Assembly (NCBI RefSeq): GCF_022846255.1 | Contig: NZ_AP025682.1 | Direction: 5' to 3' (one strand) | DNA: 64,000 bases | From: Escherichia coli | Lineage (GTDB): Bacteria > Pseudomonadota > Gammaproteobacteria > Enterobacterales > Enterobacteriaceae | Shown: piece after piece, positions 55,657-57,350 of the stretch | Position numbering within the stretch: the first letter of the stretch is position 1 | Layout: the number at the start of each line of letters is the position of its first letter | Program-made: the position numbers and the translations under genes | The notes under the pieces: model-generated | The model's input: the letters and a program-made list of their open reading frames with translations, nothing else | Databases searched by the model: none | Told to the model about the DNA's origin: nothing

Positions 55657-55676
55657 TTTATTCCTACCTCTATTAA

Positions 55677-55693
55677 TTGGAAAAATTTTCCAA
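55677..55693. promoter_or_regulatory. AllR operator palindrome TTGGAAAAATTTTCCAA in the gcl promoter
   Basis: Perfect palindrome about 21 bp upstream of the gcl start. Confidence 0.75.
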
Positions 55694-55708
55694 CTTTCAA
55701 ATTTTGTC

Positions 55709-55733
55709 AAAAAAACCCGCTCCGCAGAGCGGG
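55709..55733 (-). terminator. Rho-independent terminator after allR (reverse strand)
   Basis: cccgctc-cgca-gagcggg hairpin followed on the reverse strand by a run of seven T. Confidence 0.7.
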
Positions 55734-55745
55734 ATGCGACAGACA

Positions 55746-56561
55746 CTATGGATGTGCTTTCAGTCCCAACGCCGTGCTGATATCGCGGGCGGTGTCTCTG
55801 ACCAGCTCACCCTGGCTGACAAAACGATCTTCTGTCAGTCTTGATGAAGGCCCGGAGATGGAGATAGCGGCAACAACACTACCTACATCATCGTAAATTG
55901 CTGAAGCTATACAATTCAGGCCGACAACATGCTCTTCTTTATCTACGGTATAGCCCAGTTCACGCGCTTGTTCCAGGTCCTTCAGCAAGGTGGGCATATC
56001 CACAAGCGTCGTTGGCGTAAACTGCTGCAAACCGGTTTGCAGAATGATGCTCATCAACTCTTCTTCCGCCAGCGGATAAAGCAGCGCCTTGCCCGCTCCG
56101 GAAGCATGCAGCGGCAGACGACTGCCCAGCGGCGCACACATTCTGACCATCGATTTACACTCTAACTGACCAATTAATACCGCTTCATTGCCGTTACGGA
56201 TCGCGACATTGACCGTTTCGCCGGAAAGTAACATCAGGCGGCGCATAAACGGCCCGGCGACGGAGAGGACATCGCGGTTATGGATGTACGCTGCACCGAC
56301 GTTAAAGACACCTAATCCTATATGCCACCAGCCTAACTGACTGTCCTGATAGACAAAATCCGCTGCCTGTAAAACCTTCAGCAAGCGAAAGGTCGTGGAG
56401 AGCGGCAAATCCAGATTGAGAGAGATATCGCTAACCGACGAACTTCCCCCACTTTTTTCCAGATATTGCAGAATCGCAATTCCCCGCTCTAACGCCTGTG
56501 CACCCTTCTGTGCCACAGGCTCCGCCTGTCCTGGCCTGCCGCGCCGTCTAACTTCCGTCAT
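55746..56561 (-). CDS. allR: Allantoin regulon repressor AllR (IclR family)
   Basis: 271 aa. Confidence 0.95.
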
Positions 56562-56638
56562 ACCTACGTTAACTCCGACCTACAAATGAGCATAAACAAT
56601 GAACAATTCGTTTATCTTATGCAAGTCGGTTGCAGGCG

Positions 56639-57121
56639 TCACGCAAAACAGAGTTCCTGTTCAGGAATACTTTCAACATCACAGTTGTCACTGCCGCCGC
56701 GATCGATGGTCAGAAAATCGGTGACGCGCTGCCAGGCGAAAAGTGGGTGATGCCAGACGTTACGATGGTAATTCACTCCCTGTTCGCCATTGGTAATAAA
56801 CGCCCGCAGGGTTGACAGGTCTGGTTTGTCGTCACCTAACGCCACCACCACCACAAACACTTCACCTTTCATCGGGATAAACGCCTGTGTACCCAGCGGA
56901 TGACGTTCGAGTTCGTGAATAGTCAGCGGCAGATTCGCCGGTTGCGCGCGGTTAATGCTGATAAGCGTACGGTCTTGCTCAAGAATCTCAACCAGCGCCA
57001 AATCGTGGTAACGCTCCACCAGTCCATTGTTAATATGGAAAAAATCCCGTTTCTGCGTTTCGATTACGTCGCCATAAGCACTAAAGGCTTCCTGACTTAA
57101 CGGTAATACCTGAAGTTTCAT
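56639..57121 (-). CDS. allA: Ureidoglycolate lyase AllA
   Basis: 160 aa. Confidence 0.95.
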
Positions 57122-57226
57122 CTTTTTGTCCTTGTAACATAATTCCGTTCAACCACCGCCGACCGGTCAGCTTGGTTTCAATAACAGGCAATCTAAAACC
57201 TTAAGAGAACAACATCAATACAAAAG

Positions 57227-57243
57227 TTGGAATATTTTTCCAA
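57227..57243. promoter_or_regulatory. AllR operator palindrome TTGGAATATTTTTCCAA in the allA-allS intergenic region
   Basis: Palindrome with the same TTGGAA...TTCCAA half-sites as the gcl site. Confidence 0.7.
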
Positions 57244-57350
57244 AACTAGATTTAGTCCACAAATTGAACAGGGTTATCATGTAAAAATACTGATAAATCA
57301 GAGGATAAGAAAATCACGCAACTTGCGGATTTAAAAGGGGATACCTGAAG

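Follow-up and report, generated by a model that had tools for sequence, protein, structure and literature searches.

Two palindromes flanking allA and allR in the Escherichia coli allantoin cluster match the published operators of the repressor AllR

Background

Two short palindromes with the same half-sites lie on either side of the allA and allR genes in a 64-kb stretch of Escherichia coli DNA, which was analysed at its full length and is called the window here. The locus raises the question of whether these palindromes serve as operators, which regulator reads them and how they are placed with respect to the promoters of gcl, allA and allS. A preliminary description of the sequence had taken them for AllR-type operators, with direct repression of gcl. 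The analysis indicates that the palindromes are very probably the two operators of the IclR-family repressor AllR, which is encoded between them. Neither is new: both have been catalogued since 2002 as published AllR operators of the allantoin regulon of E. coli. The finding thus has little discovery weight, as these are textbook operators of a characterised regulon; it illustrates that a real operator pair is recognisable from raw sequence.

The literature on K-12 states that glyoxylate releases AllR from DNA, and allantoin is described as a corepressor of AllR (PMC12535856). Binding of AllR has been stated for the gcl promoter and for the allS-allA region (PMC12535856, PMC11323563), and allS is also reported to be repressed by AllR via the allS-allA site.

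Results and Discussion

Palindrome pair and gene neighbourhood

The genes and palindromes concerned are listed below with their coordinates in the window.

53875-55656, minus strand: gcl, glyoxylate carboligase, heading the AllR-repressed gcl operon (NCBIfam TIGR01504, 1282 bits; RefSeq)
55677-55693, strand not applicable: gcl operator (O_gcl), TTGGAAAAATTTTCCAA, a perfect 8+1+8 palindrome
55746-56561, minus strand: allR, encoding AllR, an IclR-family repressor and the cognate regulator of the sites (NF007548 equivalog, score 619 bits with the cut-off at 406; RefSeq)
56639-57121, minus strand: allA, ureidoglycolate lyase, AllR-repressed (NCBIfam NF002948, 364 bits; RefSeq)
57227-57243, strand not applicable: allS-allA operator (O_allS/allA), TTGGAATATTTTTCCAA, arms pairing at 7 of 8 positions each
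57351-58277, plus strand: allS, LysR-type activator AllS, AllR-repressed and divergent from allA (NCBIfam NF007501, 642 bits; RefSeq)

AllR, AllA, AllS and Gcl all scored well above the NCBIfam equivalog cut-offs. A 2.2-kb query around the sites gave matches in 5404 of 5426 complete E. coli genomes, the best of which are 99.8% identical and annotated with gcl, allR, allA and allS (RefSeq); the annotated 42-kb neighbourhood corresponds to the complete allantoin cluster (allS to ybcF). A 63-nt megablast query of the gcl control region matched 3281 of the 5426 genomes as against 5404 with the 2.2-kb query, and this lower count is attributed to the word requirement of 28 nt and to filtering of low-complexity sequence rather than to absence of the region.

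Rereading of the sequence confirmed both 17-mers at the positions first described, with the TTGGAA/TTCCAA half-sites and the 5-bp spacer length common to the two. The gcl palindrome had been placed about 21 bp upstream of gcl, and 20 nt were counted between it and the ATG. One palindrome falls in the allR-gcl spacer and the other in the allS-allA spacer, so that they flank allR-allA as had been claimed. The pattern TTGGAA-N5-TTCCAA has only two exact matches in the 64-kb window, both of them these palindromes, compared to 0.02 expected. Dinucleotide-preserving shuffles (n = 100) were used as the chance model and none of them reached two exact matches. No enrichment was observed in the window when the pattern was relaxed: with up to two mismatches there were four matches against 3.05 expected, the two extra ones lying far off at 8270 and 14322 and at chance level, and with up to three mismatches there were 22 against 30.4 expected.

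The other spacers of the cluster that were searched held no such site. The allD-fdrA(allF) spacer contained no AllR-like site at up to two to three mismatches, which agrees with PMC12535856. The 77-nt allA-allR spacer (56562-56638) contained neither an AllR-like palindrome at up to three mismatches nor a terminator in the terminator scan. This spacer hence gives no sign of a dedicated autoregulatory operator for allR, and autoregulation of allR, if any, would require read-through from the AllR-controlled allA promoter. The literature is divided on whether allA and allR form a single operon.

Two pseudo-palindromes with three mismatches, a class at chance level overall, were also noted. One, TTGCCATTTTATTCCTA (55650-55666), lies over the gcl start codon beside the real operator, and the other, TTGTAACATAATTCCGT (57132-57148), lies just upstream of the allA start. 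They could be relevant if AllR tetramers use auxiliary weak sites, of which there is a hint in the BoltzNet paper.

Correspondence with published AllR sites

The AllR motif is given as KTTGGAAWAWTWTTCCAAC in Table 1 of PMC8222616, which cites Rintoul 2002 for it, and both palindromes fit this motif at 18 of 19 positions. A 37-mer is given in PMC13300388 (2026) as the AllR recognition site of Rintoul et al. 2002, and it has one exact match in the window.

57217-57253, minus strand: published AllR recognition site, identical to the 37-mer AAATCTAGTTTTGGAAAAATATTCCAACTTTTGTATT

The matched segment consists of the allS-allA palindrome at the centre with 10 bp on each side. A full-text search of the literature gave no match for the 17-mer as written on the window strand, and its opposite-strand form led to PMC13300388. 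A comparison with published footprints had been proposed as a check on both sites. For the allS-allA site, the recognition sequence quoted from Rintoul 2002 covers the palindrome. For the gcl site the agreement is indirect and comes from the derived consensus and from reported binding, both taken from sources that quote the original work.

As relayed from Rintoul 2002 by PMC8222616, PMC12535856 and PMC13300388, the K-12 AllR operators have the same genes, positions and half-sites as those described here. The allS-allA intergenic region of a K-12-like genome is identical to that of the window. The gcl operator of a K-12-like strain reads TTGGAAAATTTTTCCAA against TTGGAAAAATTTTCCAA here on the same strand, with the symmetry-neutral central base flipped, and the sole further difference is one flanking base near the operator; both changes lie outside the half-sites. 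The flipped base is at position 55685, A in the window and T in the K-12-like strain, and by this exchange the site becomes its own reverse complement.

Conservation of the sites across and within species

The AllR protein was used to scan one genome per species; the scan yielded one distant IclR-family locus and 22 loci from enterobacteria, among them Escherichia, Citrobacter, Klebsiella, Raoultella, Superficieibacter, Buttiauxella, Izhakiella, Atlantibacter and Providencia. AllR is 66-100% identical across these loci, each of which is from another species, and the gene order, with allS leftward followed by allA, allR and gcl rightward, is kept wherever the locus extends far enough. The orthologous allS-allA site was present in 21 of 21 loci (18 exact, three with one mismatch) and the orthologous allR-gcl site likewise in 21 of 21 (20 exact, one with one mismatch). 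Every orthologous position covered by an enterobacterial locus carries one palindrome, and no further motif with up to one mismatch was found elsewhere in the 22 loci (up to 8.8 kb each). The distant locus, an Erysipelotrichaceae IclR-family locus (L023, 28% identical), had no palindrome.

The alignments revealed that conservation is concentrated in the half-sites. The mean majority fraction of the gcl half-site columns was 0.996 compared to 0.644 for the rest of the allR-gcl spacer, while that of the allS-allA half-site columns was 0.987 compared to 0.569 for the rest of the intergenic region. In either intergenic region, no other 17-column window is as well conserved as the palindrome. The 5-bp spacer between the half-sites is variable across species, yet A/T-rich, and the distance between the two operators is about 1.55 kb in every species examined. 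From Escherichia to Providencia, at least 22 enterobacterial species share invariant half-sites, and a divergent E. coli strain has several SNPs around the gcl operator and none in the half-sites. At the level of sequence, the alignments show both sites to be under strong purifying selection together with allR. The identification of the palindromes as AllR-type operators is upheld by the 18/19 motif fit, the identity with the 37-mer, the cognate genes and the conservation in the 22 loci.

gcl operator and core promoter

The gcl control region contains the following two further elements.

55709-55733, minus strand: allR intrinsic terminator, hairpin CCCGCTCTGCGGAGCGGG (55733..55716) followed by a T-run, from the terminator scan
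55705-55710, minus strand: candidate gcl -35, a perfect TTGACA at the end of the terminator T-run, read from the sequence

RNA folding gave -18.8 kcal/mol for the terminator hairpin (z = -3.0), and the hairpin with its T-run is kept across genera in the alignment. Terminator scan and fold together place the gcl operator between this hairpin and the gcl start, in accordance with the preliminary description. Only 59 nt separate the end of the hairpin from the gcl ATG, and the operator follows TTGACA at a distance of 11 nt and precedes the ATG by 20 nt. Most orthologous loci have a hexamer of the TTG type (TTGACA, TTGGCx or TTGGAT) in the position of the candidate -35. A 17-bp spacer from TTGACA would set the gcl -10 on the operator centre; the -10 so implied, AATTTT, is weak and was not called by the promoter scan. 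The gap between operator and gcl ATG is 12-27 nt in all species, with a mode of 19-20, and holds the Shine-Dalgarno sequence. Since a gap of this size fits only a Shine-Dalgarno leader, the gcl start site should lie in or upstream of the operator. From this geometry the gcl operator would overlap the -10/+1 region of the core promoter. The gcl promoter appears to be confined to the roughly 59 bp that separate the allR terminator from the start codon, so that the operator would sit on the core promoter itself. The earlier suggestion of direct gcl repression is thereby supported and may be refined, as it would follow from the geometry, with TTGACA at 11 nt and the ATG at 20 nt.

The only call of the promoter scan in this region, TTTCCA-17-TAAAAT (55683..55655), was rejected as the gcl promoter, its -10 falling on the gcl start codon. 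Strain GZ2408C has TTGGCA in place of TTGACA at the candidate gcl -35, as is found in many other genera.

allS-allA control region

The allS-allA spacer is 229 bp long and the palindrome lies near its middle, with 105 nt on one side to the allA ATG (57121) and 107 nt on the other to the allS ATG (57351).

57190-57218, minus strand: candidate allA promoter, putative; -35 TTGATG (57218..57213), 17-nt spacer, -10 TAGATT (57195..57190)

Judged by its letters and alignment, TTGATG-17-TAGATT is the best candidate for the allA promoter. The TTG of its -35 and the TAnATT-type -10 are conserved in the cross-genus alignment, and its score, 8/12, was too low to be called by the promoter scan. The allS-allA operator ends 8 nt upstream of this putative -35. 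Its centre is near -52, which is not the classic position for occlusion and is counted against such a mode of repression; the 37-bp published recognition region does reach into the putative -35. Two candidates were found for the allS promoter, one with a -10 TAGATT at 57247-57252 and the other being TGTAAAAAT at 57280-57288, which falls within a strongly conserved block.

This block, GGTTATCATGTAAAAATACTGATAAATCAG (57277-57305), is situated between the operator and the allS start and shows a conservation of 0.80-0.86 across genera. It is the best-conserved part of the allS-allA spacer after the palindrome and the windows overlapping it. The block may represent the core promoter of allS, with TGn-AAAAAT as an extended -10, or else be bound by a different regulator. 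A nitrogen-limitation input on allS, of unidentified nature, is described in PMC12535856.

Proposed mode of repression and alternative explanations

In the proposed mechanism, each 17-bp site would present two inverted TTGGAA half-sites 5 bp apart, one for each helix-turn-helix of an AllR dimer, as in the model of the literature. AllR bound to the gcl operator would cover the -10 and the start site, thereby excluding RNA polymerase, or would block the first transcribed bases. At the allS-allA site a single bound repressor would shut allA, with the recognition region reaching the putative allA -35. The repression of allS would pass control on to the allD/allF branch, because AllS activates allD and allF.

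AllR is said to have been described as a tetramer by Walker et al. in 2006. As one dimer is expected per 17-bp palindrome, one tetramer might bridge both operators. An AllR tetramer holding both operators in a repression loop or, secondly, cross-binding of the near-identical boxes by IclR is an unlikely elaboration, and both ideas are speculative. If true, the loop would enclose allR itself, couple the repression of gcl with that of allS and allA, and provide an indirect autoregulation.

Use of the palindromes by the paralogous glyoxylate-responsive regulator IclR, in addition to or instead of AllR, would imply cross-talk between the glyoxylate shunt and allantoin catabolism. The IclR consensus TGGAAATNATTTCCA (PMC8222616, Table 1) matches the gcl core at 12 and the allS-allA core at 11 of the 14 specified positions, and AllR scores 248 bits against the IclR model, which marks AllR and IclR as close paralogs. 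Half-sites and spacing are shared with the IclR box, and hence the sequence by itself is no proof that AllR is the sole user. On the other hand, the literature names AllR as the protein bound at both regions, allR accompanies the sites in all genomes examined, and a literature search for IclR data on the gcl and allS-allA promoters found none. At the inner positions the sites deviate from the IclR consensus, and it may be these bases that discriminate. On this evidence, a role of IclR at the two sites is considered highly improbable, and AllR remains the preferred regulator.

The comparison with the IclR box of the aceBAK and iclR promoters clarifies this likeness. That box also has inverted TGGAA half-sites with a 5-bp A/T spacer, and IclR is, like AllR, a glyoxylate-responsive IclR-family repressor. 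The AllR sites differ in the inner spacer and in one conserved T/A further outward (TTGGAA/TTCCAA); they belong to another regulon, and the adjacent regulator gene is allR and not iclR. With partial matches of 12/14 and 11/14 and a location in the allantoin cluster next to allR, outside the aceBAK/iclR regulon, the palindromes are not members of the IclR-box class; the likeness is one of architecture, not of membership. The operators of the KdgR and SsgR group (PMC8222616) similarly have one symmetric A/T-rich palindrome per dimer, in or beside the regulated promoter, but differ in half-site sequences and regulons.

That the palindromes act as nucleic-acid hairpins, either as an RNA stem-loop of the gcl leader or as a cruciform, and not as protein sites, is barely credible. 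Each palindrome is able to form an A/T-rich stem of 6-9 bp; the predicted stems are, however, weak, with -4.4 to -7.1 kcal/mol and z = -0.17 to -1.64 compared to shuffled sequence. Across 41 orthologous sites the arms are invariant and do not covary, and the single-base departures (loci L015, L017, L018 and L019) are uncompensated on the other arm in four of four cases. The allS-allA site would also lie upstream of the putative allA promoter and hence outside the allA transcript. Assignment of the palindromes to the RNA hairpins or intrinsic terminators was rejected on the weak stems, the lack of covariation and the four uncompensated changes. Invariant arms with uncompensated changes are the signature of a sequence-specific protein site and not of a stem.

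A functionless, chance A/T-rich symmetry has practically no probability left: short palindromes occur commonly in A/T-rich DNA such as the intergenic DNA here, but the shuffles and the 0.02 exact matches expected per window speak against it, and it is already refuted by the conservation of the sites, which persist at the same two positions, amid diverging flanks, from Escherichia to Providencia.

Additional observations

A RutR box near gcl has been reported in the literature (PMC10163214). A search with the RutR box TTGACCANNTGGTCAA at up to three mismatches found none in the allR-gcl spacer. At the same threshold there were seven RutR-box-like matches in the window against 2.5 expected, including 15532-15788, 45556-45571 and 45803-45818. 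Of the matches, three fall within the coding sequence of cusR and two within allC and allE; they are weak matches in coding DNA and probably without meaning.

Downstream of allS an intact ORF of 364 aa was found at 58346-59440. In the best-matching genome (strain 95-3322) mnmH is annotated as a frameshifted pseudogene at this place, and a K-12-like genome has an mnmH annotated as intact.

One of the loci of the AllR scan (L008) comes from an assembly titled Chryseobacterium sp. 18061 (CACSKA010000001.1). It is an enterobacterial allS-allA-allR-gcl locus with an AllR 86% identical to that of E. coli. The same study supplied Citrobacter sp. 18056 (L020), whose locus has almost the same layout. 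The assembly titled Chryseobacterium is probably mislabelled or contaminated.
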